Assembly: GCA_964187785.1 (NCBI GenBank)
Contig: OZ076409.1
Location: 62,188,001-62,252,000 of the forward strand
Origin: Amphiscolops sp. MND2022
Taxonomy: Eukaryota
Reading direction: 5' to 3'
DNA: 64,000 nt
The notes under the pieces are model-generated. The model did not search any database. It was not told the origin of the DNA and saw only the letters and a list, made by a program, of their open reading frames with translations. Below are positions 16,659 to 55,754 of this stretch, piece after piece; the stretch's first letter is position 1; the number at the start of each line of letters is the position of its first letter. The translations under genes were made by a program, and so were the position numbers.

Positions 16659-16659
16659 T

Positions 16660-25867: not shown

Positions 25868-25929
25868 GTTTACATTTGCAACCACCTCAAAATTTATTTT
25901 CAACTTAAAGATAGAAAACACTCTTGAAA

Positions 25930-26763: not shown

Positions 26764-27027
26764 AAACTTCCATGAAAACCCGGTGAAAATCCGTCAACTT
26801 TTTATAAAATGGAGTACATTATTGTGAGTGAAAGTATGTTGTATCTAATTAATTTATTATCAATGTGAAGTGGTTGTAATAATAATTCAAGAGCACTTGT
26901 GTTCACAATAACCAGTAAAAAGAATTACACAAGGCAAAAATTAATGCTGACTGGATGACATTCTAGCCAATCACCTAGGACTACACTAAAATTTAAATAA
27001 ACCAACTACTCAGGAGAGTAGTAGTCC

Positions 27028-27040
27028 AAGTGGGGGGGAA
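27028..27040 (+). promoter_or_regulatory. Polypurine tract of element A
   Basis: AAGTGGGGGGGAA immediately before the 3' LTR, preceded by the hairpin ACTACTC-AGGA-GAGTAGT (27005-27022). Confidence 0.9.
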
Positions 27041-30000
27041 TGTAGGATTTTTGACTTTTCGCTCATGATTTGGTGTTTATTAAATTTTAGTTCATCAGCA
27101 AGGTAGATTTTACGGGGTGATATCGTATAAAAGTAAAGATTACAATAAGTACTTCAAGTACCTCACACTATTGTTTAATGTCAATAATATTGTCTTTAGT
27201 CTCGCGGACAACTAAAATAACCATTCTTAACTGCTATGAAGCGGCCGCACAACGTATTAATGCAATAAGACGGCCGCCACCACCTAAACCTATGTAAGAA
27301 AATTCTAATCGGAACGAAACTTTAACATTGATTTTCTCGATACCTATTGCGAATATAAGAAAAATTAAACCACCAAAATGCTCCTTTTTGACCTGACTAC
27401 GTGTTGAGTAAACATTTAAGAACTTTTCAGTAACGAATTTTCACAGAAAAAGCATTAGAAGTCATAAAATACTGTGAATAGAAATTTAGTCAAATTACTA
27501 TGTTAATACATGTGTTTGAGGGTAAGCGAGAGTGAAAACTCCGCTGTGTGCGTGAACAGCATAGAATGCAACTCAGCTAAGCGTGTCAGAAAGCGAAAGG
27601 AATGAAATTAAGAACGCGCTGTGAGTGGCTGTACGCATAGCTAATAAGAAAACGGCCGCCGCACACTTTGAATTAATCCCCCCTCTTAATAGAAATTAAA
27701 AATCAAAACCCGATTTCTCGAAGATGAAAAAAGATAGCAACAAACGGTTTTCAGCATTCAAAAGCCCATCCAAAGGAGAGCTTAAGTTGAGAATATGAGC
27801 GTTGTGCGACCCCGGGAACATATCGGGGAGACGCTTTGAAAATAAGTGCATTGAAAATTTTGACGATTTTCCAAAATTGAGTTTCCTTTAAAAATTTCGT
27901 GTGATCGCTACAGTTGTCAGAAAATGTTCGGATATGGCTTAAATTAAAGATAAATGGATGCCCTAACTTGTGTTAATTGGAAAATAAATAATATTCAGTA
28001 GTTTTTGAGAACTGAGCCAGCAAACGTTAAAAACAGCCCTAAAATGGCCTAAAAAGCCGTTTTTCGCATGTTATCGCTTAGTACTCAACGTGTAAGCGCA
28101 CAATAGCCGCCCCCTTCACAGCGTACTTGAGAATTGAAGTGGAGGAGTGAATAGAATAATAAATAGAGTGCTGCGGTGCGCTAGCGAAGAAGCCCCAAGA
28201 ATTTAAAGTTGTGATTTCTTTCAGCCGATAGGGATGTCGACCTACCAAAATGCGAACCCCCCCCGCACGTTTTGGGCGATATCGAGCTGAAACTTTCAGG
28301 GTAGACGCACAAGACCCAGGCGCACAGCGTTTAGAAGAAGCGTTTTTCCGAAAAGTGCCCTGGTTTCGAGATATTGGCCTCCAAAGTTGAAAGTCCAGAC
28401 ATAAAAATCGGGAAAATGACTACTTTCAGAAAAAGTACTATCAAATTTTGTTGAGAAAAGATAGAGACCTCATCTAAAGTGCAAAACACTCCTAATGGCT
28501 TGGGCTAACGATGTATCTAAGCCCCCAGCCTGTATCTTTCAAATTGACGGAGTACTAGCACTCCAAAGTTGAGATTTGTGTGAAAATCGATGGGTGATTT
28601 TTGACTACCAAACTTTAAAGGCGTTTTTCATAGTGAAGGAGTTGAAATAGAAAGAAAACCATGGAGTAAGCTTTTGTAGCCCTTGAATTGTACTTTCAAA
28701 AGGTGTACTTGGTTTTTGCCCCCCGTGATCGGAACACCTTGTTTTTGCCCTTAGAAGTTGTAACACGAAAATCGAATTGAAATCGCCTTTTAGGTCATTG
28801 TAAATTGTAGAAAATTGTTTCCTTCAGCCATTTTTAGCTGAAGAGAGTTGTCAGGAACCGCGTGAGAAAAAGAGACCTGGCAAAGAGTGCAAATGTCAAT
28901 CAGTAAGCCGAAGTTCAAGTCGTGCTTACAAAAGTGGGAAACACTGAGTCAGTAGCACCACCCCTTAAATTCTATTGAAAACGAAGTAAAACCATCAGTC
29001 ATGATTGACAAGGAGGTGGAACTAGGACCGACTCGTGCTGAGAAAATGTACTTCTAATGAACTTTCAGTACCGAAGTAGGAAAAAACTGTATTGCTCAAC
29101 ACTTAGTCAGAACCCGAAAAAGGAAAGATGATAAACTATGAATAATGATATGACTAAACTGCCGAAAAAGTAACTTAGGCCGAAGTGTGCGCCATTTTAG
29201 CGACACACAAAGTGAGTTGAAATCTAGAGAACGGTTTGCTGCTTTGCGTCCGATAGCATCCCGCATCAGACACCGGACTATCGAAATTGCAGATTTACTT
29301 CGTCTGGCCGGTTAGCCCGTGCCTTCAGCCTAACAACCTGAAGTTGCCTGATTTGTTGCTACCCCGCTTTTCGCTAGTACGGATTTCGACCCGGGAGTAG
29401 GGTGGACTGCTGGTCTATCGTATTACATGTAAAAGAGCCTAAGTGGGCTGATAATACACGGTTGAGCCTAAGTGGGCTGATAATACACGGTTGAGCCTAA
29501 GTGGGCTGATAATACACGGTTGAGCCTAAGTGGGCTGATAATACACGGTTGAGCCTAAGTGGGCTGATAATACACGGTTAAGCCTAAGTGGGCTGATAAT
29601 ACACGGTTTAAGCCTAAGTGGGCTGATAATACACGGATTGTTGTTTTCACTCCAAGACCGATAGAGATTTTGCGGCGAGTTGATTCTTCCGATATCTTCG
29701 ATATCACCCCCATCCTTACGGATACAAAAACTTAACCTTGCTGAATTTCTTGTTTACTGTTCTCTTGTGTTATATGCCTCCTAATATGCCTGCTAATATA
29801 CTCCGTAATATTCTCCGCTATTATCGATGTTATTATATTATTCATTCTATTATTCGTGGATGTGAAATTGTATTTGTGTCTATTACTCGACTTATTTATT
29901 TGATGTATAGTAATTAAAGTTCAACCTGCTTCTTTTCATCAGCGAAAAGATAATTTCAAACAGTCCAAGAGTAGCGAGACAAACCCCTGAAAGAGGGAAA

Positions 30001-30213
30001 AATAGCAAAGTTGTAAAGATCGTGATTTCCTTGTCACACTTACCCCCACCGCCTTCGATTAAGTTGATTCGTCTCTTCTTCGGAGTTAATAAAAATTTAT
30101 GTAGATACTCAGCCAGTCCTTGTCTCGTGCATGGTACCTACGGGTTTAATTGAGTTGTAGTGGAGCTATTCTCAACAAATAGTTAAAGCTACTGGAAAAC
30201 TAAAAATCTTACA
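27041..30213 (+). repeat. 3' LTR of element A (3173 bp)
   Basis: Direct repeat of 13586-16658. The length difference is explained by four extra 29-bp units, a 15-nt deletion and a 1-nt C-run difference. Confidence 0.97.
29435..29637 (+). repeat. 29-bp tandem repeat in the 3' LTR (7 copies)
   Basis: Same unit as at 15996; copies start at 29435, 29464, 29493, 29522, 29551, 29580 and 29610. Confidence 0.95.
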
Positions 30214-32567
30214 GTAGAGAAGAAAAGACCAAATGAAATCTATTTGGCGCTGAGCGACATTTTGGAGAGTTATTCTGTCGCTTGGTGGTCTCCCTTTAGA
30301 TTTTTCTAATGTTTGCGAAAAAACGCGTATATTTGTATCTGAAGCGTCCCTCTTCATATAATTGTGGAATCTTTAATTGAAACAAGTTTTCTTGAATGTT
30401 GCTACCTTAGATTTTCAGAGAGTTTTTAAAATGAATGATTGTGTTTCTAACTGGAAGGGTTCTCTTCTGTGTTTTCGGGTTTTGTACGCTTTTTCTATAT
30501 TTGATTTTCACAATTCAGTGTTCTGAGAGCTGGAATTGGTATGTGATCGTTGTCAAAAATTTTTCCAATTGAATTATGTTTATTTCGCTTTCCGATATTA
30601 CGCCTTTTGAGATGAAAATAACGCAATAATCGAATTAATTGATGAATGTTCGTGAATTTTTCCGAACTATTAACTTTATTGCCAATTTTCACCGAATCTT
30701 ATAAAGACAAAGGCGAGGCAAATATACTCCGCGTCAAAAAAAGTCAAAAAAGACAAAACTTAAATTGCAAATATCTCGTATTTGACGCAACCTAGAAGTG
30801 TAATATTTTACAACAAGCAAAGCCATCAACAGATAGTCAGTTATACTTAATTTAATATGGGATTACTCCTCCACGATTCGCAATACAGAGTTGTAAACGG
30901 CGGTGTATTCTTTTTGCATAGAGCATTATTTTTCTATTATTTTTCCAGAGCACTTTTGGGTGGATAATGACTGTGCAAAATTTTAAAAAATTGCAAGGTC
31001 AGTTTTTGAGAAATTCGAATTTTTCACTGAAAGATCGGCAGAAAAAAGGTACGATTGCATAAATTGTTGAAATTTTTTTTCGACTCCTCAAAAAAACTTC
31101 GAACTTTTTGAGCGGTGCGCCGAGTTGAAACCACGTTTCATTCAGCATAGTGATAAATAGTTGGTCAAAACAAAACAGATCAAAGTGTATGACCATTGTT
31201 TCACTTTTCATCAATTTATCTATTATCAAAAAAGACCCTTGAGCGTTCCGAACATACTTTATTAAACGATGAAGTTTCTTAAAAAGTAATGCTTACATTT
31301 TCTTCAGAAGAGTTTTCCTTGCATTTGCAATAACTGCGTATTCCCAATGTTAGAATTAATACTGCACTTAGTCACTAGTTCAATTGCAAAAGATATACTT
31401 TAAAAAGATTTTGAAACCAGCTCTTTTGAGAGTAAATATTGATTGTTAGCAATGCAAGTAGTGTCCGAATCGGTTGGAAAATTGTCTTCACAGATCTACA
31501 TACTTCTGGCTTCTCGTGTCGTTCTTCTTGAACTATCAACAAAATAACGTTTAAACCTAATATCATTTTCCGCAAGGAAAAAATACAAGTTGCTTTGATC
31601 TATTCGATGTTGTAATGATGTCTAGGCTATTAAAAACTTTTGCATCATATTACCGTCTGAAGGGTTTCATTCTACTTTTATTCGTGATCAGCTCTTGTAT
31701 CTACGTGTTCAATCCAAATATATTATCCAATGAGAAGTTAGTTAGCAATGATCACATTTTAAGGAATTAAACGAGGAATTGGTGTTATTGAATGCATAAA
31801 TACATTTTAAAAATTTATTACAACTGTCTTTTTGAAGTTAGGGACTTTTTTGTATGTTGCCGAATAGTAAAAATTTATAGAACGTGAGAGGAATTCAGCG
31901 GCTTTGAAAACTCGTCGTAACCATTTCTTAAATCAACCAATTGTGGCATTAAAAAACGCCTGAAATTGGCGTTCTTTTTGCGTGTAAAAATACTTACGCA
32001 AAAAGTCTACGTTACTCTAAATAATGATTTTTGATCAAAAGGAAAGATTATTTAATCAACCAATATAATATACAAATGAGCATGAACGAGAAACATCTTC
32101 TCGTATTAACAACGCTCATGACTAGAATATTTTTTGTGAGCATTGATCATCCTAAAAATCCCCCCTCTGAAAAAAGAAAACGGATAATGTCTTTCAGACC
32201 CTTTTCCCAGGAAAAGCTGCCAAGTTTCATCGCATTTTTCAGAACACATTTCAACATGCTCAATCATACAAAGATCATTGTCTTTTCCGTGCTACTCACA
32301 TAGGAACATCATGATGATATTTAGTTTTTTAAGTAACCATTTCTCAAAGATATCTTGTAAAACATGCATAATTTTGCAAGACCTTGCCGGGAAAGAAAAA
32401 ACCAATTCAAAATTAATATTATTATAACAAGACGTGAACGTATCAAGTCGTTCAAAGTTCAAAGTTCCAAAAGTGCAGAGTGTTCCAGATGTGAAAAAAA
32501 CACTGAATTCCTTGATTAAAAGATGCATCACTTTGTTTCCTTTAAAAAACGCAGTGTGATTAATAAT

Positions 32568-34303
32568 TGTCGCAGGCTGCCGCCTGTGACGGCACAAGAA
32601 TCACAACAACGACTGTTGGCCAAAATGTGGCTCCTGGGACCCTACCCATTTATTAAAAGTAAACTGAAACTTTTCTTTAAAACTTTTTCATTTCTATGTA
32701 TCTTGTTGCCTTGTTATTTTAAAACTACCCGAAAGGGCCGTACTAGGACATATTCCCTTACTCCCGAACCAAAAATGTGCTTATTACTTATTTGCAGACA
32801 ACCTTAGTTTTGAATGTTAATGATATATTAGTCTGTTAACATGGACAGTGTTGTGTTGTTGTTTTGTAAATGCAATGAAGTGTTATTCAGAGATAATAGC
32901 AATCAACTAAGAGAGAGTACGGAAACGTGTTCAAATGGTTCTCTGTACTTTCTTGCTAGCGTCACTTGCGCTCACCATATTGGCCAATCAGGTGCTTCCA
33001 TTTTGTATTCTTTATTCTCTTTTGCCGATTACGGCCGTTGTACAATTAGGACAAGTGTGCTATTAATGCTGTTCAGGCAGGCGGCCTAATCTGGCTATTT
33101 AGTCTTCAACAAGCAAAGCACTTGTATGTGGCGCTAATTGCATGTAATAATATTTATGTAATAGTAGGCTTTGATCATCATGAAGTACCAATTTGAAGTA
33201 CTATTTAATGTTTTGTTGTGTTATTAGTAAATAGTTGCCCAATCTCGCTCTAATATAGCCCTGTTGCATGGAAGTTGATGTTATTGCCCTAACAGGCCTT
33301 TTGCCATTGTACTCGCGAAAGGAATTTAGACCTAACATATTTGTTGTGCTGCCACGTGCTAAAGTATGTGTACTTATATCAACAAATACCAGTTCGATGA
33401 AAATATCTTGTCAATTTGCTATGAAATATGTAAACGATGCTTACGGTTAAATGATTGTCCCTTTGATGTGTGATATTTGAAACGGATAGCATTTATCTCG
33501 TGACCATCAAAAATGTGATCATATGATATTGTCTTGTTCATGGAATGTAAAGAATTGGAGTGTTATTCTTTCGGGGGTATAAATACCCGTGCCTCTGGAA
33601 GAGGAGTCACTTACTAATTTGCTCTCTTCTGAAAAGGACTATCATATTGAATACAAACGGTTCCACTGTTATTTTCGAGATAAAACCTAATTCAATTTTA
33701 TACTCGAAGTTTTCTCTATGCCTACTACAAGGAAACAAAAGAAGACTAGGAAGTCTCGAGGATTAGAAGTCCTTTCTGATATTGAAAACCTAGATATAAT
33801 GCTAGGAGGCAACCCTTACAATGGGACTGAAAGAGAAAGGAGTTTAGACAATAACTCTATTGAAAGGAGAGGAAGTGTCATAAGCAATAACTTGGACAAT
33901 GAAGGCGAAAGTCTATTTTCTAACTGCAGGAATGATGAACCTAGGACAAGTGCCGATTTTGGCCAAAACTCAGCTGAAGCAAACTCACTAGCTGAGATAA
34001 ACAGGTTGTCAAGCGAATTGAACTCTAGGATATCCCGTGAGATGGATGAAATGATGAATAATGTTGGGTCGCAGATCCAAAGGGCCATTAATGAGGCGAT
34101 CAGCAGTCAAGTACTACCTCAAATACAGAATATCATAATGGCCGGATCGGGCCGGGAGACAAGAAGGGGATGGGAAGTCCCAGTTGAGAGACCAGAAATA
34201 AATGCCGAAGAACAGCAGGTTCTTAACGCTAAAGCTGGTTGTAGAAATGAACAATGTGATGGGTACCGAACAAATGGACCATCTACCCGTAACGTTCATG
34301 ACA
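32568..34303 (+). repeat. 5' LTR of element B (1736 bp)
   Basis: Near-identical to 46861-48596 (only two substitutions noticed by eye). Contains TATAAAT at 33578, Inr-like TCACTT at ~33607 and the first 195 gag codons. Confidence 0.96.
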
Positions 34304-35430
34304 TGGTGACAGGAGACAACGAATCTCCACTTCAAGTTCCCGAGTTTCTCACGGGACGAGTCTCATCCAGAAACCATCTTGACAGGTCCTATGAGGACAT
34401 CAACCTTGACACAACGATCCCAGCGCAAGAGAGAAATGCTCCGGCTACTCAAAACGACCCTATTACTCGACTAGCAGATGTCTTGACAACGATGCAGAAT
34501 AGGCCGACAGCCCAACAACTCACTATACGCCCAGTCAATTCCAACACAATGACTTTTGATGGCAAAAGTGAAAAATTCGAGCTGTTCGAGGACCTGTTCC
34601 ACACGATGATCAAGATGCAACCGGAAATGACGGAACAGATGAAAATAAATCACTTCCACTCACTACTGAGGAAGAATGCTCTCCAAACCTTCCGGAACAT
34701 CAGTTCGAGCAATAGACAGACTTTAGAGGACGTATTGGTAATATTCAGACGAAAATACGTCAAACCCGAATCACAGGCGACAGCCAAACATAAATGGCAC
34801 CGTCTAGTCTTTGATCCCAACACGATGAAACTGCCAGATTTCCGTGAAGAACTAAATCAAGGGGCAGAAAAAGCATTCGGGGATCACGCACAAAAAATGA
34901 TTGACAGTTTGCTTTACGCAAAACTGCCACCGAAACTGAAGCGGTCTGTTAACATGGCCAGATTAGAAAATGGCTCATACGATGAGATAGTTGCTCATTT
35001 GGAGAGAGAATTAGAGCTTAACGCCCTCGAGGAGTCAGACGATCTACCAATAGCAACAATGACCTCCTCATCGACTAAGCCCAAAACTCCTCTGTCCACT
35101 GGGCAAATGTCAGACATTACTTGCAATTATTGCAAGGAAAAGGGCCACATGGTAAAGGACTGCGAAAAACTCAAAAAGAAAAAAGAAAAAGATGCCCAAC
35201 AAGGCAAACAGACTCAGAAAAAGACGTATCCGGAGTGTGGTACTTGTGGTAAAAAGAACCACCCCGAAGAAAGATGTTGGCAAGGAGCCGGTGCGCATCT
35301 CAAACCCAAACGCACCAGACCAGATGACGCCAATGACGGAAAGCCCAATTCAAAGGCGCAGAAACCGCAAAACAAGTCAACATCTTCAAACTCACAATCC
35401 TCATCTTCTAATGATGAGTCAAAAAACTAA
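33718..35430 (+). CDS. gag: Gag of element B (570 aa)
   Basis: Capsid-like core (TFDGKSEKFELFEDLFHTMIKM...) and two zinc knuckles, CNYCKEKGHMVKDC and CGTCGKKNHPEERC. Starts inside the LTR. Confidence 0.93.
   Translation: MPTTRKQKKTRKSRGLEVLSDIENLDIMLGGNPYNGTERERSLDNNSIERRGSVISNNLDNEGESLFSNCRNDEPRTSADFGQNSAEANSLAEINRLSSELNSRISREMDEMMNNVGSQIQRAINEAISSQVLPQIQNIIMAGSGRETRRGWEVPVERPEINAEEQQVLNAKAGCRNEQCDGYRTNGPSTRNVHDMVTGDNESPLQVPEFLTGRVSSRNHLDRSYEDINLDTTIPAQERNAPATQNDPITRLADVLTTMQNRPTAQQLTIRPVNSNTMTFDGKSEKFELFEDLFHTMIKMQPEMTEQMKINHFHSLLRKNALQTFRNISSSNRQTLEDVLVIFRRKYVKPESQATAKHKWHRLVFDPNTMKLPDFREELNQGAEKAFGDHAQKMIDSLLYAKLPPKLKRSVNMARLENGSYDEIVAHLERELELNALEESDDLPIATMTSSSTKPKTPLSTGQMSDITCNYCKEKGHMVKDCEKLKKKKEKDAQQGKQTQKKTYPECGTCGKKNHPEERCWQGAGAHLKPKRTRPDDANDGKPNSKAQKPQNKSTSSNSQSSSSNDESKN
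34304..34315 (+). promoter_or_regulatory. Putative PBS TGGTGACAGGAG, lying inside the gag reading frame
   Basis: TGG directly after the LTR-terminal CA. Resembles a tRNA-Leu-type 3' end complement; tRNA assignment uncertain. Confidence 0.65.
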
Positions 35431-38400
35431 CTTTGCCACGACTCCAATACAACGAACTGATATCCGTCCGCCAATACATCAGGTCGGATCCTCCAACGCA
35501 AACTTTCCACCAATACAATCAGCAATTGATGGGCTATCCCTCTGTTGTCTGGCAGCAACAGATGGACAAGGCTATCACCATCACCTATAACAACACTCAT
35601 TTATTCCAAAAACCAATTCCTGTTTGGGACCCTGACTATACCACTACCTTCACTACCCGGTTCAGGCCCATTCCCCTGGTAGATAATTACAATCCAACGT
35701 ACATCGACCCAGACTACGGCAGAGATCCCTATTGGGACACCGAGATTTACAACCAAGATTTACTGCAATTCCAGTACGTTCTAGATGATATCGAACATTA
35801 CAATCGATCAGTCCACGAGAATCCTCCAATCACCCACAATAAGAAGACCAGAGCATTAAATGAAAACTGGCAAATGAATGATGGCACGAACCATCCAGTG
35901 TTCCCAAACCCATTGGGGACCGATAACCATGACAACAATACTGAACCCATACAGCAATCACTACTAGATGAGAAACAATTCCAAAATGTCCTAATCACAA
36001 GGGACGGCGAACCAGACTGTATACCTTTGTCAACCAACATCAATCTCAAATGCAAGAAACGCATGTTGTATTTCCCAATGGACTTTGGGGAATTGACCAT
36101 TGATGGACTCATCGACACTGGAGCGCTGTCCAGTGCAATTCCTGAAATGGACCTCCGGAAAATCCGACTTTTATCTCCACAATCTGTTATCCGGGAAGGC
36201 CCGCCTCCGAATTTCCAAATAATGGTCGCTAATGGGCAATTGGAAACTCCCAAGAGTACCATAGAGCTCAAATTTGAAGTTGGTGACATCGAGTTTCACG
36301 AGATTTTCATAGTCATGGAACACCTGACAGGTCCGATCATTGGACTAATGTTCCTTCAACGAAATCATACAGTTCTGGACATGAGACAAGGAATACTAAA
36401 CTTCCCATTCTTTTCAATGCAGCTCAAAACAGCTGATCATAAATATTCAAATGTACTAGAACCAATTCTCAATCCCATTGAGATAACCATTCCTCCAAAT
36501 GACAGAGTCCTAATTAGGACCAATTCCCTACTGTACCCTGAGAATGCTGTCACTGGGATTTTACAACCGAGCGACCTTCTACATGAAGAAGGCGACATCA
36601 CATTTTGCCCAGCTTTGGTCACTCTGAATGATGGCAACATATCGATACCTGTGAATAATTTCACAGACCACCCCTATAAACTCAAAAAGGGACTCCATAT
36701 TGCCAATTTCTCTGTTATGACGCCAGAACAAATGAAATATGTCAAACCGGTGGACCCGGCATCAACCTGGCATCTCTTACAGAATGATCAAGAGCAGGCA
36801 GCCCACTATGTCAGCAGTCTCATCAAAACTAATAGAAATCCACAAAACTCCGAAAATTACTGGTTCCCAACCCCAGAAAATCCTGGAAATCCTGAGGAAC
36901 ATACGCCGATACAAAAACGAATCCTCCAGGAATTACAGGCCTTACAAGACCTCGAGACACTTGACCCTACTCAAGATGAAGAATCACGTACAAAGTTCTT
37001 AGAAAATTTCGATTGGAAAGATTCCACCCTTACTCCTGAAGAGAAGGAGAAAATAGAGGAATTGTTAGTGGAATTCCATGACATCTTTGCACGACACCGA
37101 TTTGATATAGGCATGAACGAAGACTTCAAGGTGAAACTGACACCTAAAGATGATTCCCCAGCCTATAGTCAAAGTCTTCCGGCCCCTATCAATTTGAAGG
37201 AAGACATCCTCGTCGAATTAGCCATGTTACACAAATATGGCATAATAACTACACTGCCGTTCTCAAAGTATGCAAGCCCAATATTCGCCCAAAAGAAACC
37301 AAATGGGAAGCTACGACTCCTGGTTGACTTGAGAAAAATCAACAACCTCATCTCGGATGATTATATAAACAATAATCACCCTGTTAGCACCCTGGTTGAT
37401 GCTGCCCAACACTTGGCAGGCAAAAAACTCTTCTGTAAATTAGACTGTTCGCAGGCATACCACTGCCTACCAATGGCCGACCAACGCTCAATCGAAATGT
37501 TAGCTTTCAATTTTGCCAGTCGCACATTTGCTTATAGACGATTGGCACAAGGCCTTAGCCGGTCACTATCTGCATTCTCAAGTTTCATGAGGGAATACCT
37601 CGACAAAGTCATCAAAGCAGATCAGTGTGCCCAGTATGTAGACGATATCGGCATCGCAGCCAACGATGTTGACCACCTCATGATGAACCTGAGAGCTACA
37701 TTCAAATGCATTCAGGAAGCAGGCCTTAAATTGACAATGCACAAATGTCACTTTGGTGCCAAAGAAATTGATTTTCTTGGACGAACAATTACCCCACAAG
37801 GCGTTAAACCCCAAAAGCAAAATGTTCAAAACTTTCTGGAAAAGACCAAATTCCCGAAGTCGAAAAAGGCTTTACAACGCTATCTGGGATTCCTAAATTA
37901 CTACAGAAATTATGTCCCAAGACTTTCAGAACGCCTTGCCCCATTCTACAAGATGCTGAAAAGTGACGAAAAAGTCCTAGTATCGAAAGAATTAGTCCAA
38001 CAATTTGAAGAAATCAACAAGGCACTTGACAAATGTTGTGATTTGGCCCTACAACAACCTATCCCAAACAAACAAATCGCACTAATGACTGACGCAAGTT
38101 TTGCTGCAGCTGGATATGCGGTCTTAATAGAAGACGATCCGAACCAGAAATTCACATCTCTCCGAAAATCCTATGCACCGGTGGCATATGGCTCAAAAAC
38201 CTTCACCCCAGCCCAGATCAAGATGTCAATATATGCCAAAGAGTTTCTTGCAATTTATTTTGCATTCAAAGAATTTGGGCATATATTCTGGGGTGCGCCC
38301 AAACCGGTCATTATCCTCACAGACAACAAAGCTGTGACGAGATTTTTTCAAACGAAAATAATACCCCCAGCCCTGTGGAATGCATGTGATTATGTGATTC

Positions 38401-40625
38401 AGTTCAATTTTGTCATAGCGCATATCCCGGGGGCACAGAACACAGCAGCTGACTATTTGTCCCGATTGGAGGCAGATCCGAAGGATAAATTAGTCATGAA
38501 AATCCGTGAAGACGTGCAAATTCTACCCATTGAAGTAAATGTCCAATCTGCGGGGGTATCACAGGAAGAACAAATATTCTATACAAATGATGAAGACGAG
38601 ACAGAGGAACAATATTGGGCAAGAAAAGAAACAATCAGGAAAAGCCCAATGACTGATGAGCCCACTGTTACCATACAAACTCTGTCAACCAATCTGGTCA
38701 GACAACAACAAGACATTCAAGTCCGATTCAAGAAAATAAACCAGATAATCATTGAGCAATCCAAAGATGCAGTATTGCAACAATTGAAGGCAAAGCTCCT
38801 TCATGAAGACTATTCAGAAAACATACTGCAACAGGATACCCGATACAGACACTATGCAAATAATCTGGAACGAATTGTACTCAAGGACGAAATCCTGACG
38901 AGGCAATATTTTGACGAAACAGGGAATGTTAAATACCATCAAATTTTGCTCCCGCAACACCTACTTCGGGAATTGCTTCAGTCCCTTCATGGAACAGCGC
39001 AAAAACATCCCGGGATTTCCAAAATGTTGCAGGAAATTAGACAGAGGTATTACTACCCTAGCATGGCTAGACACGTCAAAAAGTGGGTAGAAGGGTGCGA
39101 ACAATGTGCCAGAGACAAGCGAGTCCCTAACGCAACGATCACACCTGAACTGCTCAATTTGCCCGAATGGGACCTTGGACCTGAAGACGCCATGCAGATT
39201 GACTTACTGCCGAACCTTCCCCCAAGTGGAGGATACGAAAACGTCCTAACGGCAATCGATGTATTTTCCAGATATTTGTTTGCTTACCCTCTTACGGACG
39301 CATCAGCAATCAATGTAGCAAAAGTGCTCATTGACATCATGACCAAACATGCATATCTACCAACAACTCTTATTACTGATAAGGGTACTGCATTCACTTC
39401 TACGATTACTGCGGAGGTTACGCAGATTCTGGGCATCACACTCAAATGTGCAACGACAAAACACCCGCAAACAATTGGCAAATTAGAGCGGACCCATGCC
39501 TCATTAAAGACAAATCTCAAAATGGCATGTGGGGAATACCGCCGACAATGGCATAAATACTTGCCATTAGCAGTACTGAATCATAATACAAGTTACCATG
39601 CCAGCATCGGCTGTGAACCAACGAGAGTATTTCATGGCCGAATTCCCTACAATATCCTAGATCATAAGCTTGGAAATAACCCAAACGAAAAGATCAGCCC
39701 TACAACCGAATTTGCTGAAGAAATCCAGAACAGGACGAAAACCCTAATAGACAAAACGAAGCAAAATATCATGCAGTCATATATCAAATACAAGGAATAT
39801 TATGACCGCAAAGCGAAAGCTGCTCCATTGAAGGAGAATGAATTCTGTTTTGTCTTACAGCCGAAAGCGGACCATCAAGGATCGAAAATCCCATTCTGCG
39901 ATTATCGTTGGGTTGGTCCATTCATAGTGCAAAAAGTCCTACCAAATGAGAATTACATTGTACGACGGCTTAATACAAACAAAACCCAAATATTGCATCG
40001 AATTCGCCTTAAAAAATTTGTCCCCAATCAACCGTTAGAGGACAATTTCCGAGAGCAACGCTTGCAGCCAGACGAAGAAATTGTTATTCCGCAGGATGAC
40101 TTATACATCATAACGTGGGAAACCGACTTTGGCGAGCAGCTAACTATACGAGACAACGAAGCTATTCCGACTAGCTTACCAAATGGCGAACGGCCGAGTA
40201 CGGCACAAATTAACAATGACGCAAACGAGAGTGACGCGGATTATATAATCACGCGAGAAACGAATCAAGACAATACGGCACACAGCCGGAATGACCGCTT
40301 AGGTGACAACGTCACAAAGAGAATTGAAGATAATGATGCAAATAGAAATAAAGAATCTGATTGGCCAAATCCGGCCGCTAACCCAAATACTCAAGAAAAA
40401 TCTTTACCGAGTACAGCAAATGCACCGGAAAATCATGAAATTTTGTCAGAAAGAAATTCGCTGAATGAAAACGATGCACAAAATTCTCCAAATAGGGGGG
40501 ATGATATTATCGTGCCCGAAATATCTGAAAACGATGCTAGAAATGAAAGCCTGAGCCCTAGAGGAGGAAAATATAACCTCAGGCCTAATCCCAACCCGAA
40601 CTACTCAGAAGACTATAGATACTAG
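35421..40625 (+). CDS. pol: Pol of element B (PR, RT, RNase H, IN), reached by -1 frameshift at A AAA AAC (35421-35427)
   Basis: Slippery heptamer just before the gag TAA; the -1 frame is open into the 1730-aa ORF. Motifs LIDTGA, RLAQGL and YVDD, MTDAS and TDN, H..H..CEQC, D-D-E and GPF. Confidence 0.96.
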   Translation, partial: KKLTLPRLQYNELISVRQYIRSDPPTQTFHQYNQQLMGYPSVVWQQQMDKAITITYNNTHLFQKPIPVWDPDYTTTFTTRFRPIPLVDNYNPTYIDPDYGRDPYWDTEIYNQDLLQFQYVLDDIEHYNRSVHENPPITHNKKTRALNENWQMNDGTNHPVFPNPLGTDNHDNNTEPIQQSLLDEKQFQNVLITRDGEPDCIPLSTNINLKCKKRMLYFPMDFGELTIDGLIDTGALSSAIPEMDLRKIRLLSPQSVIREGPPPNFQIMVANGQLETPKSTIELKFEVGDIEFHEIFIVMEHLTGPIIGLMFLQRNHTVLDMRQGILNFPFFSMQLKTADHKYSNVLEPILNPIEITIPPNDRVLIRTNSLLYPENAVTGILQPSDLLHEEGDITFCPALVTLNDGNISIPVNNFTDHPYKLKKGLHIANFSVMTPEQMKYVKPVDPASTWHLLQNDQEQAAHYVSSLIKTNRNPQNSENYWFPTPENPGNPEEHTPIQKRILQELQALQDLETLDPTQDEESRTKFLENFDWKDSTLTPEEKEKIEELLVEFHDIFARHRFDIGMNEDFKVKLTPKDDSPAYSQSLPAPINLKEDILVELAMLHKYGIITTLPFSKYASPIFAQKKPNGKLRLLVDLRKINNLISDDYINNNHPVSTLVDAAQHLAGKKLFCKLDCSQAYHCLPMADQRSIEMLAFNFASRTFAYRRLAQGLSRSLSAFSSFMREYLDKVIKADQCAQYVDDIGIAANDVDHLMMNLRATFKCIQEAGLKLTMHKCHFGAKEIDFLGRTITPQGVKPQKQNVQNFLEKTKFPKSKKALQRYLGFLNYYRNYVPRLSERLAPFYKMLKSDEKVLVSKELVQQFEEINKALDKCCDLALQQPIPNKQIALMTDASFAAAGYAVLIEDDPNQKFTSLRKSYAPVAYGSKTFTPAQIKMSIYAKEFLAIYFAFKEFGHIFWGAPKPVIILTDNKAVTRFFQTKIIPPALWNACDYVIQFNFVIAHIPGAQNTAADYLSRLEADPKDKLVMKIREDVQILPIEVNVQSAGVSQEEQIFYTNDEDETEEQYWARKETIRKSPMTDEPTVTIQTLSTNLVRQQQDIQVRFKKINQIIIEQSKDAVLQQLKAKLLHEDYSENILQQDTRYRHYANNLERIVLKDEILTRQYFDETGNVKYHQILLPQHLLRELLQSLHGTAQKHPGISKMLQEIRQRYYYPSMARHVKKWVEGCEQCARDKRVPNATITPELLNLPEWDLGPEDAMQIDLLPNLPPSGGYENVLTAIDVFSRYLFAYPLTDASAINVAKVLIDIMTKHAYLPTTLITDKGTAFTSTITAEVTQILGITLKCATTKHPQTIGKLERTHASLKTNLKMACGEYRRQWHKYLPLAVLNHNTSYHASIGCEPTRVFHGRIPYNILDHKLGNNPNEKISPTTEFAEEIQNRTKTLIDKTKQNIMQSYIKYKEYYDRKAKAAPLKENEFCFVLQPKADHQGSKIPFCDYRWVGPFIVQKVLPNENYIVRRLNTNKTQILHRIRLKKFVPNQPLEDNFREQRLQPDEEIVIPQDDLYIITWETDFGEQLTIRDNEAIPTSLPNGERPSTAQINNDANESDADYIITRETNQDNTAHSRNDRLGDNVTKRIEDNDANRNKESDWPNPAANPNTQEKSLPSTANAPENHEILSERNSLNENDAQNSPNRGDDIIVPEISENDARNESLSPRGGKYNLRPNPNPNYSEDYRY

Positions 40626-40853
40626 AGAAAATTAAATTCGATTCAGGAGACTAGCCCTGAATTGTTTTGCCTTTTCTCTTTTTTATCTTTTATCTTTTAG
40701 TCCCAAGGCGATTCTTTTGAATAAATAATTGGGACAACTAACAAAACCCCTTTAGAAGAATAAATACGGGGCAAAGAAAGAACAGAAATGGAAATTCAAC
40801 AAAAGAAATAAACAAAGTTTACAGTTTGAGAGTACATATATACATATGCACAT

Positions 40854-43800
40854 TTAGTTTTTAGAACTGCTAGCTGAAGATTCGTCGGCAACAGACGAAG
40901 TCCTAGAACGCGAAATGGCCCTCTCCATTCGTCTTCGCTTGCTATCACTGGGAAGCTTTACTGCAGAAGCATCAGGGATGGAAGAAGTATCTGCTATAGT
41001 GGGACTGCGGAATTGAAACTCTGACCCTGAAAGCATAGAACGGTAAGATGTAACAAGGGTCTTGTAGATAGCGGTCCGGCCGAAACCGTCCACAAAAGGC
41101 CAAGGGTCATAATCGGCGGCGAAAGCGGATTGCCCGAAAGAAGAAGACAAATGCTGGAACTTCTCAAGCTGGGGCTCACTGCAGCAGGCCAGCAAGGAAT
41201 CAGGATCCGAAGTCAAATAACTCTGACAGGGTAAGATCACATCTGCCAAACGGGATTGAAGCCCTGTTGTATCAATTCTCCCAAAGGAAACTGGGGGATA
41301 TTCAGGACTGATGGTAGTTATGCAGGGACAGCTTAACTTAAACAGGTAACAAAGATGATCATGGGACTGGAGGAATTCCAAATTCATAAAGAAATCAATG
41401 AGATCAGGGGGATCCTTGGCTGAGCTAAATTCAGCGGAGTGATTGTTCCGGAGGTGGTCCAATAGGGCAACATACTCGTCCCGGCAAGCTGACTCGTTGT
41501 ATTCCGAGACCCAGAAACGCAGCTGGAATGTGGAGTACAGGCAATCAAAATGGCGCAAAGCAACATCCACTGGCCGTTTGAATAGAATGTATGGGTCGAA
41601 CGCTGCCAACCCCTTGATAAGGTCGGAACTTAGCTCAGTATGTTGAAGAACCTCTGACAACAGGAACTTGATGTAACTTTTGGCGCTTGACGTGAAATCC
41701 GATTTGGCTTGGTCAGCAGTCTTACTGATCGCTGCTTTACTGGACTTCTTGTTGAAGTGGAGCCCAGCTGCCTTCAAGTTGCTTGCTGTGGTGACTTTGC
41801 CAGCGATCTTGAGACGCACCAGAAAGTCCTCGTCTCCCATAAATGTGCCCTGATTGAGCTGGAAATTCATCAGTAGGAACCAGGCGTTCTCGAGTGGCAC
41901 TGTATCTGGCTGGAAGATACGGAAGCAGAGGCGGTTGATATATTTGCACAGCTCGCCACAAAGGAAGAAGGAGGCATCACGTCTCTGGCTCAAATTGGCG
42001 ACGAAGCTGGTGACATCTGAAATTCATAAATCAATGGTCCTTAAAAGGACAACAGACCAAAGGGATCTTAATAGATTGAGAATACTCACAATCGCTGACC
42101 AAACGTTGAAAAAGCTCCAATTTGACAGCAAAGAAGTTGTCCATGATGAGGGACCATTCGAAGCTCTGGACCTAGGAAGAAAGCAGTGTGAACATCTTGG
42201 AACTTACCCAACAACGATAGTACAAGAAAAGCAATTACTACGATTCCCTATGTAAAGAAAATACCACTTGAAGCTCATAACCTTATTGTGTACTCCTTGA
42301 TTCTCTTGACGAGATGAATGGGCTGTGAGATAGCGGAGGATTGTTTTCCACTTCTTCGACAAGATTCGGCAGAGTTCAGGAATTTTCCCCACTTCTAGTC
42401 TGCAGGTCGTGATTGCCTAAACAAAGTGATCCTTAGGATTGGAATTCCAACTGAAGTTACTTACCACCCCCTACCAGTGTAATGTAAACCAAGTGCGTAA
42501 ACTAGACTCTCTCGGACAAGTTCAGGTGACTCCGAAACCCAGTCTTCAGAAAGGCATCCTCCGAGTGAGACTATGAGGCTTTGGAGAACGGAAAACATGT
42601 CTATGTGCCCAAACACACTATAGTTCCTCTTGTGCATCAAGGTGCGCAAGTCGAGCAGTTCGAAGCGAAAGCAACTTTGAACCCCACGTGGGTAGGCTGG
42701 GTGATGGTCCACCGTCTTGATCAGGTCAACAGCGCAACCCGAGATCGCAACTATGTCAGGAGCAGTCGATACAACGGATAACAATCGAGATAAGGAGCCC
42801 AGTTCCTCTGTGAGTCCAGCGCCAGTGAGGCCACTTCTGCAGATGAACAGACGGCAGAGTTTCGCTCCTTTCCAGAATCGCAGGGACATAAAGCGATTAG
42901 CCCCCCTCTTCTCAAACTCAACTGCGAAATGCTGGGAGGCGGAGACCTGTTCAGCCACATCCTCCATCAGGCAATTGAAGACATGTTGGAAAATGGCCTG
43001 AAATGGAACAAAATCAGATCGTTAACATGACGTCACTTTCCTGACCCTTCCCTACCAACTAATCCAACTTTTGGAAAACAACTGAGGGATCTTACCATGA
43101 TGTGGTCCTCATTCCAATTGAAGTCCTGGAAAGCCGACTGAAACCCAGTGTAGCTTCCAACTCGCGACCACAGTTTTTGAAGCAGTGCCAGATCACCAGA
43201 ACCTTGAATGAAGTCTCCCAAGAGACATATCTGTGTTCGCAATCGGGACTGTGGAGTGATGGGAGCGGAAGTGTGGCCTTGCAGGTAATCCTCGTAGAAT
43301 GGATTTCTTTCTCCAACGTCAACGAGCTCTGTGTGCATGAATCTGGGTAGCTCATCAGCGAGTTCCTTCTTGCTAAGGATCTTGCCATTCTTCCCCCTGA
43401 CGCGATGTTGAACCTTCCCAGTAACAGGATCCACCGTCTTGAGGTGTTCATACCTCCACCTCTGGTCTCGGCGCAGATGCTTTTCGGTCCTGTGATGGTG
43501 TAGGATTTCAACGGTGCCCTTGGTTTTTATGCTGAAATTCTTTTTACACATGTGGCACCATACCATGTGTGGATTGTGGAGGGGATCAGAAGGCCCAGAG
43601 ATAAATGACCTTGTCCACCCAATTTTGGAAAGGAACTCCTCCCTCATGGGTACGCCTCGCCTGGAAACTTTTTTCACTTTGACCGGTCTTGCGGTTGTAG
43701 TGCTTTTCCGAGACCTCTGGGTGGGTGTCCTATCCCGGATCTCAGAGAGGGTAATGTCGAGGCTACTCCTTCCACCTGTCTCAGCTCCCTCCTCAGAAGA

Positions 43801-45123
43801 ATCTTGTGGCTGCGCTAGCTGAGGCGTTTGAGGAGAACCCCGGGGGTCTACAATCCCGAGAGTCTGGTTGATGAGAGCCATTTCGGTAGGACTGTCACTC
43901 TCGTTGGGATCAAGGAAATCACTGACGTTCTGGAGCAGACTCATGTCAGTTTGTGACTCGTATCCTGACCCGACTTCAGCCAAAGTTCCCTCAGAACTGG
44001 ATCCAGCAGGCAAATTGGAACCAGGAGTGGACGGTCGGTTCCGAATCTGAAATTTCTCCGTCCTTGAGGGGGCTGTTGCAGGTGTTCCCCTGACAGCTCC
44101 AATTACCATCCTTTCCATAGTCGAGCAAGTCATGTTGATGGCCTCATCGGTTAAAACCCGAAGCAAGTGGTAAACCTGTGGCTCAGTAAACGCAACGACT
44201 CTTTGGCCGACCGGAAAGGTATAAGGATCCTCAGTCTCGAAGTATTGCTTCAAGGTGGCTCAACTCCGCCCTGACAAGTTTCGCAAGGTGTCGTTTTGAC
44301 CTGATTGGTCAGCTCTGGATGTGCCGGGTTGGCCCGGATCGTGAACTTCTGAGCCTGATTCATCTCCAGTTTCTGATTGTTGTGCAGAGTCAAAAGGATT
44401 AATGGCATATAATGGTGGGCACTCGCCTTGACTAACGTTTTCTGATGTTTGATTGGCATCACTGGACTCGCCAATATCTTCAACTTGATTTTTCCTCCCA
44501 GGGAGTGGAGGAGGTTCCATGACAGAAGAGGAGGCATCCCCTTCGGACTGTAGGAACGAAACTTCAGACATCTCTTCTGTCTGATCTTGGATGACTTGCA
44601 GCTCAGGGAAACCTGTACTCATCTTCGGCGTCACTGAAAGCGAAGTTTCGAGTTGGGTGAGACTATCTACTGAAGTCCCTGGCTGATCTGGGGGATTAGG
44701 TGTACTAGATCGTACGAATTCAGCATCCTGGTCTACAATTTGGGCTAATTGGCCTTGGGCCGTATTAGGATCCTCTTCGACGTTATTAGCAGAATTGGCT
44801 TCGGCAAGTCCTTGCATGGTCTCCATCCTCTGAGACCCCTGATCTGCATAGATGACGGCACCGGCGTTGTTCGCACCATGGAAGGAAGTGTCTGCAGCTA
44901 TATGTTCAGTTTGTTCACGAGCAGCCCTGATTGGAGGGAAAGGAGGCGGTGAAGGATTAACTCCAGGAACATATCCAGACACGGAGATGGGGACTGGGCG
45001 TTGAATAGCCCCGGCGGAATTGTCAATTGTGTTGGTGGTTTGAACTTGAAGTTCATCAGGATTCTGATTATCTAAGCAGAAAGAGATGAAATTTGGCGGT
45101 AAGCTTCCTTGAAAGAAATCCAT
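40854..45123 (-). CDS. Antisense five-exon accessory gene (~1297 aa): low-complexity N-terminus, BED-like zinc finger and degenerate hAT-transposase-like body; two apparent lesions in this copy
   Basis: Exons 45123-43096, 42997-42512, 42416-42282, 42171-42090 and 42016-40854 join in frame (3894 nt). Introns of 98, 95, 110 and 73 nt end in YAG; donors are GTAAGA, GAGAGT (non-canonical), GTTATG and GTGAGT. In-frame TGA at 44262-44260. Zinc finger WCHMC...HHRTEKH. Confidence 0.72.
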
Positions 45124-46178
45124 TACGCCGCATTAGAAAACTTCCGGAAGTGTTTTGAAGAATTTGAATGAAACGACTTATCACGTGTTCATTAGTGGAT
45201 TCAGGAAGCGTTTTGTGAACAAATTCGACCCTGATCAAGTTGAACTAGTTCAAAATAGGAGAAAATCAAACCAACCTGTATTAGAAGACATTCTGTTGAA
45301 ACAGTCCACTTGGATACAGTCCCGATCCGGACGTTGTTGAAGAGGGGAATTCGAAGTGCTCGGGGATGAAGCAAGGAGAAAGAATCTGCGACGAAGCAGG
45401 ACGTGGTCCAATGCAGGCACCAAGACGAAATTGACGATGGAGATGAAGATTAAATTCTGAATGGAAGGATAAATGAAACAATAATTGGAATTGAATCAGG
45501 AATTGAATGAGTAAAGAATTACTAAAAGTTGGAGTTCGTGGCTGAAGATTATTACCAGACTAATATTATGGGATTATCTACATATTTATTCTGTACATGG
45601 AGTCTGCCAGCGAAGTGTACAAGAAACTTTGTTATTTACAGCTTACTTAGTTAGTGGCCTATTCCGGCCGTTTGACCAATTACTCTTTATCGTTTCGTTC
45701 AGTTATCTTAGTTATTCTTTATTAAAAAAATCCGCCATTTTGAATTATTTTGATTTATTATTTTCGCCATTTTATTATTTAATTTCCATTTTATCAGAGC
45801 TTAACTCTGATTGGCTGAAGCCATGTTGAAAGAATCTAGCGGCGCGTGCTGTTAATTGATCCGAAGCAAGCCGTTAATTACCCACTTGAAGAGAAGATAT
45901 TTGATATCAACAACTTGAGTGCTGCTTACATCTACATTAGTGATGGCTTAGATAAAAGACAAACACCTATTTAATCGGAGCCGCCAACCCCGTTTAGGAA
46001 TTCCATTCAGAAAAGTTTACGATGAATCGGGGCAATCAACCTGAGATTATCCCGCTAAATTAGAAACTTCGGGAAGAGTCCTAATTCGGAATTTGGGGAG
46101 GTGATAAGCTCATTCCGATTTCAAACTCGCTCACGACAAGTTGACTAGAAAACCTTCAAAATTGCGAAAAAACTAATA

Positions 46179-46949
46179 ATGGAGAAATTCAACAAAGCGA
46201 GAAAGCTCTTTGGTTCTCTTGACTTTAGCTCGGACTCATCAAACAACTCTGTAATCTATATCAGTAGCGACGAGGAAACATCCGAAGGATGGGACTCAGA
46301 TTGGTCAACGGACACGGAGGAACTGGTGAGGAGGGTTGAAACTCAAGTCCAAGCCCAGCCGATACCCATAGCAGGAAGAAGACTAACTACGGCAAGTGAT
46401 GAGCCTGGACCCAGCACTGTGTCGCCCAACAAGCAGACCACGCCAAAGTTAGACAAGAGATACTTTGATGAGAAACTTTGCTATGCTCCAACTAGAGGCA
46501 ACACAAAAAGAAGGATAGAACTGTGCAAGACAATTCTGCCAGTTCTAGAGTCTCCACTATCTCCACCTGCCCATGAGAAGGGGCCGTCAATGGACACTCC
46601 GCTACTACAGTCTGAAAACAGTGGATTCCATGCCTCTTTCCATATTCAGAATGCACTTCCTTACACGGACATCAGTACCCAGAGATGTACGAGTTGCATG
46701 GTCTGTGGAAAGTCAGTAGACGAAATAAAGGCAATGAAGGTGACTCGCTATATGGAAGCTTCGACGCCTAGGAGCGAACCGGCGTACATAACGGCTCTCA
46801 GGAAAGAAGCCTACATCAATGGTCTTAATGCAGGCAGTCTTCTCTTCATCGCACCCGCTGTGTCGCAGGCTGTCGCCTGTGACGGCACAAGAATCACAAC
46901 AACGACTGTTGGCCAAAATGTGGCTCCTGGGACCCTACCCATTTATTAA
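46179..46949 (+). CDS. Accessory ORF (256 aa) overlapping the start of the 3' LTR
   Basis: ATG-initiated intact ORF with SIM-like VIYISSDEE, an acidic N-terminus and a CTSCMVCGKS Cys motif. The last ~29 codons lie inside the LTR. Confidence 0.75.
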   Translation: MEKFNKARKLFGSLDFSSDSSNNSVIYISSDEETSEGWDSDWSTDTEELVRRVETQVQAQPIPIAGRRLTTASDEPGPSTVSPNKQTTPKLDKRYFDEKLCYAPTRGNTKRRIELCKTILPVLESPLSPPAHEKGPSMDTPLLQSENSGFHASFHIQNALPYTDISTQRCTSCMVCGKSVDEIKAMKVTRYMEASTPRSEPAYITALRKEAYINGLNAGSLLFIAPAVSQAVACDGTRITTTTVGQNVAPGTLPIY

Positions 46950-48596
46950 AAGTAAACTGAAACTTTTCTTTAAAACTTTTTCATTTCTATGTATCTTGTT
47001 GCCTTGTTATTTTAAAACTACCCGAAAGGGCCGTACTAGGACATATTCCCTTACTCCCGAACCAAAAATGTGCTTATTACTTATTTGCAGACAACCTTAG
47101 TTTTGAATGTTAATGATATATTAGTCTGTTAACATGGACAGTGTTGTGTTGTTGTTTTGTAAATGCAATGAAGTGTTATTCAGAGATAATAGCAATCAAC
47201 TAAGAGAGAGTACGGAAACGTGTTCAAATGGTTCTCTGTACTTTCTTGCTAGCGTCACTTGCGCTCACCATATTGGCCAATCAGGTGCTTCCATTTTGTA
47301 TTCTTTATTCTCTTTTGCCGATTACGGCCGTTGTACAATTAGGACAAGTGTGCTATTAATGCTGTTCAGGCAGGCGGCCTAATCTGGCTATTTAGTCTTC
47401 AACAAGCAAAGCACTTGTATGTGGCGCTAATTGCATGTAATAATATTTATGTAATAGTAGGCTTTGATCATCATGAAGTACCAATTTGAAGTACTATTTA
47501 ATGTTTTGTTGTGTTATTAGTAAATAGTTGCCCAATCTCGCTCTAATATAGCCCTGTTGCATGGAAGTTGATGTTATTGCCCTAACAGGCCTTTTGCCAT
47601 TGTACTCGCGAAAGGAATTTAGACCTAACATATTTGTTGTGCTGCCACGTGCTAAAGTATGTGTACTTATATCAACAAATACCAGTTCGATGAAAATATC
47701 TTGTCAATTTGCTATGAAATATGTAAACGATGCTTACGGTTAAATGATTGTCCCTTTGATGTGTGATATTTGAAACGGATAGCATTTATCTCGTGACCAT
47801 CAAAAATGTGATCATATGATATTGTCTTGTTCATGGAATGTAAAGAATTGGAGTGTTATTCTTTCGGGGGTATAAATACCCGTGCCTCTGGAAGAGGAGT
47901 CACTTACTAATTTGCTCTCTTCTGAAAAGGACTATCATATTGAATACAAACGGTTCCACTGTTATTTTCGAGATAAAACCTAATTCAATTTTATACTCGA
48001 AGTTTTCTCTATGCCTACTACAAGGAAACAAAAGAAGACTAGGAAGTCTCGAGGATTAGAAGTCCTTTCTGATATTGAAAACCTAGATATAATGCTAGGA
48101 GGCAACCCTTACAATGGGACTGAAAGAGAAAGGAGTTTAGACAATAACTCTATTGAAAGGAGAGGAAGTGTCATAAGCAATAACTTGGACAATGAAGGCG
48201 AAAGTCTATTTTCTAACTGCAGGAATGATGAACCTAGGACAAGTGCCGATTTTGGCCAAAACTCAGCTGAAGCAAACTCACTAGCTGAGATAAACAGGTT
48301 GTCAAGCGAATTGAACTCTAGGATATCCCGTGAGATGGATGAAATGATGAATAATGTTGGGTCGCAGATCCAAAGGGCCATTAATGAGGCGATCAGCAGT
48401 CAAGTACTACCTCAAATACAGAATATCATAATGGCCGGATCGGGCCGGGAGACAAGAAGGGGATGGGAAGTCCCAGTTGAGAGACCAGAAATAAATGCCG
48501 AAGAACAGCAGGTTCTTAACGCTAAAGCTGGTTGTAGATATGAACAATGTGATGGGTACCGAACAAATGGACCATCTACCCGTAACGTTCATGACA
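46861..48596 (+). repeat. 3' LTR of element B (1736 bp)
   Basis: Direct repeat of 32568-34303, followed by the TSD ATAAT. Confidence 0.96.
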
Positions 48597-48613
48597 ATAA
48601 TAAACATAACTAA
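48011..48613 (+). CDS. Truncated Gag N-terminal ORF (200 aa) carried by the 3' LTR, ending in flanking DNA
   Basis: Identical to Gag residues 1-195 except one N>Y change, then NNKHN-stop, the last residues coming from the flank. Confidence 0.6.
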   Translation: MPTTRKQKKTRKSRGLEVLSDIENLDIMLGGNPYNGTERERSLDNNSIERRGSVISNNLDNEGESLFSNCRNDEPRTSADFGQNSAEANSLAEINRLSSELNSRISREMDEMMNNVGSQIQRAINEAISSQVLPQIQNIIMAGSGRETRRGWEVPVERPEINAEEQQVLNAKAGCRYEQCDGYRTNGPSTRNVHDNNKHN

Positions 48614-55554: not shown

Positions 55555-55754
55555 NNNNNNNNNNNNNNNNNNNNNNNNNNNNNNNNNNNNNNNNNNNNNN
55601 NNNNNNNNNNNNNNNNNNNNNNNNNNNNNNNNNNNNNNNNNNNNNNNNNNNNNNNNNNNNNNNNNNNNNNNNNNNNNNNNNNNNNNNNNNNNNNNNNNNN
55701 NNNNNNNNNNNNNNNNNNNNNNNNNNNNNNNNNNNNNNNNNNNNNNNNNNNNNN
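55555..55754. other. Assembly gap (200 N)
   Basis: Run of N. Confidence 1.

Follow-up and report, generated by a model that had tools for sequence, protein, structure and literature searches.

The 64,000 nt stretch of the Amphiscolops sp. MND2022 assembly analysed here (GCA_964187785.1, contig OZ076409.1, forward-strand positions 62,188,001 to 62,252,000; hereafter the window, numbered from its first letter) contains at 32568-48596 what by its structure is a young Gypsy-type long terminal repeat (LTR) retrotransposon. In the interval from the pol gene to the 3' LTR of this element, on the strand opposite to gag-pol, lies an intron-bearing gene that is likely to be descended from a DNA transposase. 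A sequence-only reading of the window had already placed this antisense gene wholly inside the element, and the LTR pair and its ATAAT duplication do bracket it. Its parts, in the direction of its own reading, are as follows.

45276-45291, minus strand: first coding exon, 16 nt
45072-45275, minus strand: intron 0, 204 nt, conserved at the DNA level
43096-45071, minus strand: exon 1, 1976 nt; about 480 Ser/Pro/acid-rich residues, then a zinc finger
43477-43617, minus strand: C2H2 zinc finger, within exon 1
42998-43095, minus strand: intron 1, 98 nt
42512-42997, minus strand: exon 2, 486 nt; contains the FAVEFE segment
42417-42511, minus strand: intron 2, 95 nt; exactly absent in L122
42282-42416, minus strand: exon 3, 135 nt
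42172-42281, minus strand: intron 3, 110 nt; exactly absent in L111 and L112
42090-42171, minus strand: exon 4, 82 nt
42017-42089, minus strand: intron 4, 73 nt; exactly absent in L122, L251 and L253
40854-42016, minus strand: last exon (exon 5), 1163 nt; basic, Ser-rich tail

The four introns of 98, 95, 110 and 73 nt drawn in the sequence-only reading are present at the boundaries it gave, as are the Pro/Ser/acidic N-terminus, the zinc finger, the FAVEFE segment and the C-terminal motifs that it described. Its model was nevertheless incomplete, having overlooked the 16 nt first exon (45291-45276) and the 204 nt intron behind it; with these two parts the gene has five introns and encodes 1285 residues. 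The 1298-codon frame that it proposed does add up, with consistent phases, from an ATG at 45123, although in the window copy a stop at 44262-44260 closes it. This ATG lies within intron 0 and is a second in-frame start. The block that holds both starts is present in 57 of 60 further loci, with the ATG at 45291 in 55 of these and its donor in all 57, the ATG at 45123 in 56 and the intron-0 acceptor again in all 57; in 58/58 rows the first exon measures 16 nt, and the ATG at 45123 lies 52 nt from the acceptor with no stop between. Since both starts are conserved at a fixed spacing, the protein is likely to have two alternative N-termini. The N-terminal arm itself is Ser/Pro/acid-rich and fast-evolving, with short conserved islands, one of them helical-looking.

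The block at 45151-45072 (minus strand) is more conserved in its DNA than are the exons, with distances of 0.004-0.03 for 45123-45085, and a palindrome, TTCCGGAA, at 45151-45140 in intron 0 is kept in at least 53 of 57 loci. The block is a candidate cis-element, or a candidate binding site of the antisense protein itself. In the same block a plus-strand splice donor was dropped from consideration, since the distant clade does not keep it. For intron 2, a different donor near 42464 was rejected because it breaks the frame; the sister copies and L122 fix that junction at 42512.

The surrounding retrotransposon is laid out as follows.

32568-34303, plus strand: 5' LTR, 1736 bp, TG..CA ends; ATAAT duplication at 32563-32567 directly before it
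33718-35430, plus strand: gag, open; begins within the 5' LTR and crosses the primer-binding-site-like (PBS-like) site
34304-34321, plus strand: PBS-like site, TGG immediately 3' of the LTR
35418-40625, plus strand: pol, open, 1735 codons stop to stop; protease, reverse transcriptase (RT), RNase H, integrase
45292-46178, no strand: spacer, conserved and non-coding, between the head-to-head antisense gene and orfX
46179-46949, plus strand: orfX, 256 aa, a conserved second accessory open reading frame (ORF), extending into the 3' LTR
46861-48596, plus strand: 3' LTR; ATAAT duplication at 48597-48601 directly after it

Self-comparison of the window gives two differences in 1736 bp between the LTRs and the 5 bp duplication ATAAT. 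The order of pol domains is that of Gypsy elements, and the gag product matches DUF1759 (E 1.9e-5) and zf-CCHC (E 0.003), both just under the cut-off. The LTR pairs of all 16 sampled elements are 97.6-100% identical, so many subfamilies have moved recently. TGG stands directly 3' of the LTR in the window copy and, as printed, in 14/16 sisters; a 5 bp duplication was called automatically in 8/16, the remainder having mis-set ends or incomplete spans. No clear polypurine tract precedes the 3' LTR in any of the 38 resolved near-clade copies, where the stretch is pyrimidine-rich; the distant clade has a short AGGGG run there in four of five copies. The pyrimidine-rich stretch (46830-46860, and likewise in L196-L235) falls within orfX and mostly ends in CAG, like a splice acceptor. 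The gag start lies about 585 nt inside the 5' LTR and its frame is continuous through the PBS-like site (33718-34321), so the 3' LTR holds a gag fragment (ORF 47984-48613). Of 40 pol-selected loci, 38 keep the accessory gene orfX, which lies head-to-head with the antisense gene. A VIYISS-acidic stretch conserved in it resembles a SUMO-interacting motif, and it has a CxxC motif with a weak match to the Spin-doc finger (E 0.14).

A genome search with the last exon returned 7663 candidates, of which 107 were scored, most of them with open frames. Forty of the 107, spread over 79-99% identity, serve here as near sisters, and a further 20 loci at 27-78% identity bring the gene-selected set to 60. 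In the near sisters, all but three of the 400 splice dinucleotides (397) are canonical. Frame-shifting indel events common to at least three copies number 11 within the gene span, every one of them in an intron, those in exons being confined to single copies. Between the two nearest subfamilies the ratio of nonsynonymous to synonymous divergence (dN/dS) is 0.21 in the N-terminal arm and 0.04-0.18 in the remainder, against 0.68-3.25 in shifted frames. Intron positions are kept in the distant loci, at lengths of 65-179 nt, although a few rows are offset or degenerate and L120 is unresolved at three junctions. By these measures the antisense gene is real and under purifying selection, which supports the earlier suggestion that it is a dedicated accessory gene. 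Introns 2, 3 and 4 are exactly absent from the loci listed beside them above, with the frame continuous, which provides natural confirmation of three junctions; splicing of an antisense mRNA may be inferred from the same patterns. In L111, L112, L122, L251 and L253 the losses appear stepwise, their direction being assigned by parsimony, and such exact, stepwise loss suggests that a spliced antisense mRNA has at times been reverse-transcribed back into the element.

The window copy of the antisense gene is a defective allele, carried by an element that is otherwise open and young. Its exon 1 has the in-frame stop at 44262-44260, which is private to this copy (0/40 sisters), and its intron-2 donor at 42511-42510 is non-canonical where all 40 sisters have a canonical one. 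Of these sisters, 17 are free of any lesion and 23 have scattered ones. That an element with two differences between its LTRs and open gag and pol should have two lesions in this one gene hints that the antisense protein may act in trans.

The association of the gene with the retrotransposon is close. In all 60 gene-selected loci pol is adjacent on the other strand, none of the 60 has the gene outside an LTR element, and it occupies the same position in loci down to 27% identity. To counter the bias of selection by the gene, a second sample was drawn by integrase, comprising 40 of 150 near matches, chosen as ones not noticed among the earlier loci, and 20 of 150 distant-clade matches. The finger exon, exon 2 and exon 5 are more than 70% covered in 36/40 near and 17/20 distant loci, that is in 53 of the 60 pol-selected loci, so that the expectation that sister copies keep the gene is borne out from both directions; six of the remaining seven have remnants and one has none within 10 kb. 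Gene matches about 14.3-14.4 kb apart also occur in the same genome (for example C12:39856977/39871372/39885762 and C1:79169692/79183997). This spacing is about the element length minus one LTR, which suggests tandem arrays with shared LTRs.

For the origin of the gene we used as a comparison clade 16 full-length DDE transposases (clade A5, P0313-P0328). The last exon matches their profile with a probability of 92.8% (E 4e-7, 224 columns), scoring 55.8-57.6 against shuffle maxima of 19.3-23.5; its residues 1-233 (42014-41316) correspond to the insertion domain, in its second half, and to the C-terminal helices of a hAT-type transposase, and the alignment stops just before the catalytic Glu motif of the clade. 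The finger matches the clade's N-terminal finger (E 1.1e-4, score 40.6 against 27.4 for shuffles). The two matches are collinear, and the unrelated controls, pol and orfX, remain at background. Identity in the part aligned is about 13%. Exon 4 finds its best match at the expected place of the transposase profile, yet no better than shuffles do; the middle exons give no significant alignment to that profile, and when the post-finger region, exons 2-3 and the C-terminal helix are forced into global alignments, these do no better than shuffles.

With ESM Atlas, hAT-dimerisation clusters were recovered at 0.92, a weak result whose recognition score is under the threshold, and exon 2 gave no usable match. 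No exon matched Ac-type or Tip100-type hAT profiles from the same genome significantly. The PF05699 dimerisation region matched none of 122 members, but it also matched none of eight donor-clade transposases. The finger has no match to Pfam zf-BED, and PF14291 matches nowhere. Foldseek against the PDB gave no match at E<=0.001 and a second look with VIA nothing clear; a shallow fold prediction from 15 rows reached a pLDDT of just 35.9; sequence searches of the PDB were empty or at chance level. A weak search among proteins of 677-2000 aa found no annotated full-length relative, a metagenome scan no relative, and further searches no Rfam match and no tRNA.

Free elements related to the donor clade occur in the same genome (L175-L189), with CAGGG ends and 5-6 bp duplications, and hAT families with 5 and 6 bp duplications have been named hAT5 and hAT6 (PMC12730594). 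Descent of the antisense gene from a hAT5/hAT6-like DNA transposase is likely, the label being taken from duplication length and CAGGG ends and not from phylogeny. The hAT origin suggested by the sequence-only reading stands on the finger and the last exon; the clade concerned differs from the Ac/Hermes and Tip100 types, whose profiles yielded no significant match. The free elements are mostly internally deleted copies, and both 5 and 6 bp duplications occur in one family.

That the middle exons are unaligned and the fold search has no clear match would suit a real accessory gene of non-transposase origin, its matches being convergent or inherited from a host gene with the same scaffold, and five introns could indicate a host gene as the immediate donor. 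Two significant collinear matches to one clade of transposases with terminal inverted repeats (TIRs) argue otherwise, as does the fact that in none of the 60 gene-selected loci does the gene lie outside an LTR element, and a domesticated host intermediate would still be transposase-derived; we regard this origin as improbable. The presence of free hAT5/hAT6-like relatives in the genome might instead suggest a DNA transposon nested in one ancestral copy, persisting as neutral cargo or as a still-active transposase. None of 73 candidate pairs of inverted ends around the antisense gene has a 5-9 bp duplication, and the TIR of the free family is not found there, in agreement with the earlier expectation that neither TIRs nor a target duplication would flank it. 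The constant position of the gene, purifying selection with saturated synonymous sites and the failure to find catalytic motifs also speak against nesting, which we consider extremely improbable.

Within the transposase clade the D, D, CxxH and E motifs are invariant (16/16) and RW is present in 15/16. Val or Ile occupies 151 of the 157 filled rows of the antisense-gene column in register with the clade's Glu, a register extended by hand, and by eye the donor FDE, SMDG, CGLH and RW motifs have no counterpart. The FAVEFE segment, taken in the sequence-only reading to mark the site of the first catalytic Asp, can be placed by eye with its ..RFW where the donor has CFDE..RFW, with Glu for Asp, but the alignment is not significant. 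Exons 2-3 have no significant alignment, which leaves the positions of the Asp residues uncertain, and exon 2 is a candidate degenerate RNase H-like core by eye and position. The antisense protein is likely to be catalytically dead, as had been proposed. Both Cys and two His of the zinc finger are invariant in 59/59 rows, and DNA binding is likely to be retained.

The antisense gene has not travelled with a single backbone. L196, L197, L198, L203 and L209 differ from the window copy by a synonymous divergence (pS) of 0.15-0.20 in integrase, against a pS of 0.84-0.85 and a nonsynonymous divergence (pN) of 0.28-0.31 in the last exon. L227 and L235 are close to the window copy in orfX (pN 0.07) and LTR sequence (78%) but distant from it in the antisense gene, and in L052 the pattern is the opposite. 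From these contrasts, pol, the antisense gene and the orfX/LTR unit assort separately, the evidence for mosaicism being pairwise pS and pN; a quick integrase tree was mostly unresolved and carries no claim of co-phylogeny. Old alleles of the antisense gene evidently persist on similar pol backbones, a pattern that would fit diversifying pressure on the accessory gene and would argue against one-to-one recognition of variable LTR sequence. It is possible, though on balance doubtful, that the retrotransposon clade has itself domesticated a DNA transposase, the spliced, dead hAT-type protein and orfX forming a two-gene counter-silencing cassette whose ancient alleles, dozens in number (27-99% identical), are exchanged by recombination between pol backbones that are nearly identical; a Class II gene would then be at the service of a Class I element, in an arms race with the silencing system of the host.

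The protein, of the same origin, might instead act at integration by binding cDNA ends or integrase, as a chromatin tether or nuclear carrier. Transposase scaffolds bind element ends, and the antisense protein has basic stretches that we take to resemble nuclear localisation signals. The LTR begins with TGTCGCAG, near-invariant from one subfamily to the next, so that recognition would survive free assortment of the gene with LTR alleles. Such a protein, made from a separate mRNA, would have to get into the particle, and the long acidic arm seems better suited to transcription or chromatin; a role at integration is in our view unlikely.

The reading that we favour, while putting it somewhat short of an even chance, is that a spliced antisense mRNA from the spacer encodes a dead transposase-derived DNA-binding protein that sustains transcription of the element in trans. 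An ancestral element would have acquired a transposase gene, placed between pol and the 3' LTR, and the ends of that gene would have been lost. Introns antisense to the genomic RNA persist through retrotransposition, and the antisense orientation would thus have spared those of the captured gene, whose conserved positions suggest that they survive copying. The spacer at 45292-46178, a predicted two-way internal promoter, would drive the spliced mRNA with its two alternative starts, as conservation and the exact intron losses suggest. The protein would have kept the finger and the helical scaffold seen in the profile match, lost the DDE motifs, to judge from the alignment register, and gained a long acidic disordered arm. 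In the nucleus it may bind element DNA and recruit or block chromatin factors in trans, as an activator or an anti-silencing factor.

Dead transposases can also repress through binding. The protein or its antisense transcription might accordingly be a self-limiting repressor that sets timing or tissue, like retroviral antisense products; the end of the gene lies about 230 nt from the stop of pol, the genomic RNA overlaps the gene, and for plant elements antisense regulation has been discussed (PMC7264820). Against this, the clade is abundant, with recent activity in many subfamilies, as its LTR pairs attest, and strong selection at the protein level means that RNA alone is no explanation. We judge a repressor to be quite unlikely.

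Accessory genes in this position have precedents. Grande of maize (gene23), RIRE2 of rice, Retand, PvRetro13 and the fungal Boty all have an antisense ORF between pol and the 3' LTR; most of these ORFs are of unknown origin with no similarity to other transposable elements, and gene23 of Grande has its own upstream promoter and a nuclear product (PMC7264820). TRP28 of Retand is a predicted DNA binder, and the word 'intron' is absent from the same paper (PMC11963269); PF04195, the TRP28 family, has no match among window proteins or family members. The present gene resembles this aORF-3R class in its Gypsy host, its position and orientation and its presence in most copies, and differs in having five introns, 1285 residues, a traceable hAT-type donor clade and a head-to-head partner ORF. 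Since the aORF-3R layout already occurs in plants and a fungus (PMC7264820), the layout itself is not new, and the earlier suggestion of an undescribed system holds in a narrower form: what is new here is the traceable origin within a known layout. We found no intron-bearing hAT-derived antisense gene in an LTR element, and no domestication of a transposase by another class of transposon, in the open-access literature, Repbase and subscription journals lying outside that scope.

With hAT5/hAT6-like transposases the antisense protein shares an N-terminal C2H2 finger and a C-terminal helical half in the same order, and it differs in the lack of TIRs and duplication, in catalytic motifs not being found and in the new N-terminal arm of about 480 residues. 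Domestication of transposases is known for host genomes: the ZBED family, DAYSLEEPER and ZNF862 are finger-bearing DNA-binding regulators derived from hAT transposases and are single-copy host genes, whereas the antisense gene is maintained inside another transposon and would be selected via replication of the element. A transposon-encoded counter-silencing protein is also known, VANC of VANDAL. The plant mobile domain (PMD) is common to Gypsy elements, host genes and Mutator-like elements (PMC5418596), and bdelloid ORF3s encode env-like proteins or enzymes (PMC5408684). These three are likewise accessory genes kept by a transposon clade, some of them touching on silencing, but their proteins are unrelated to the antisense gene, and the PMD is not a disarmed transposase. 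Other accessory genes have been described (PMC13547354, PMC6431247). Where the antisense accessory genes of LTR retrotransposons come from and what they do is still an open question (PMC7264820), and the present case brings to it a donor that can be traced, a clear gene structure, natural alleles in the hundreds and a DNA-binding domain that lends itself to testing. Exons of this kind are also liable to mis-annotation as host genes or as nested hAT fragments.

Elsewhere in the window, a second, different Gypsy-type element lies at about 13585-30213, with LTRs of about 3 kb that contain a 29 nt tandem repeat. Its ORFs include one of 675 codons at 23328-25355, env-like in appearance with no Pfam match, and one of 282 codons at 25915-26763. 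Around a gap of 200 N (55555-55754), the segment 52433-58144 holds a duplication of about 2.3 kb whose copies are 90-92% identical; it is possibly an assembly artefact or a tandem duplication.

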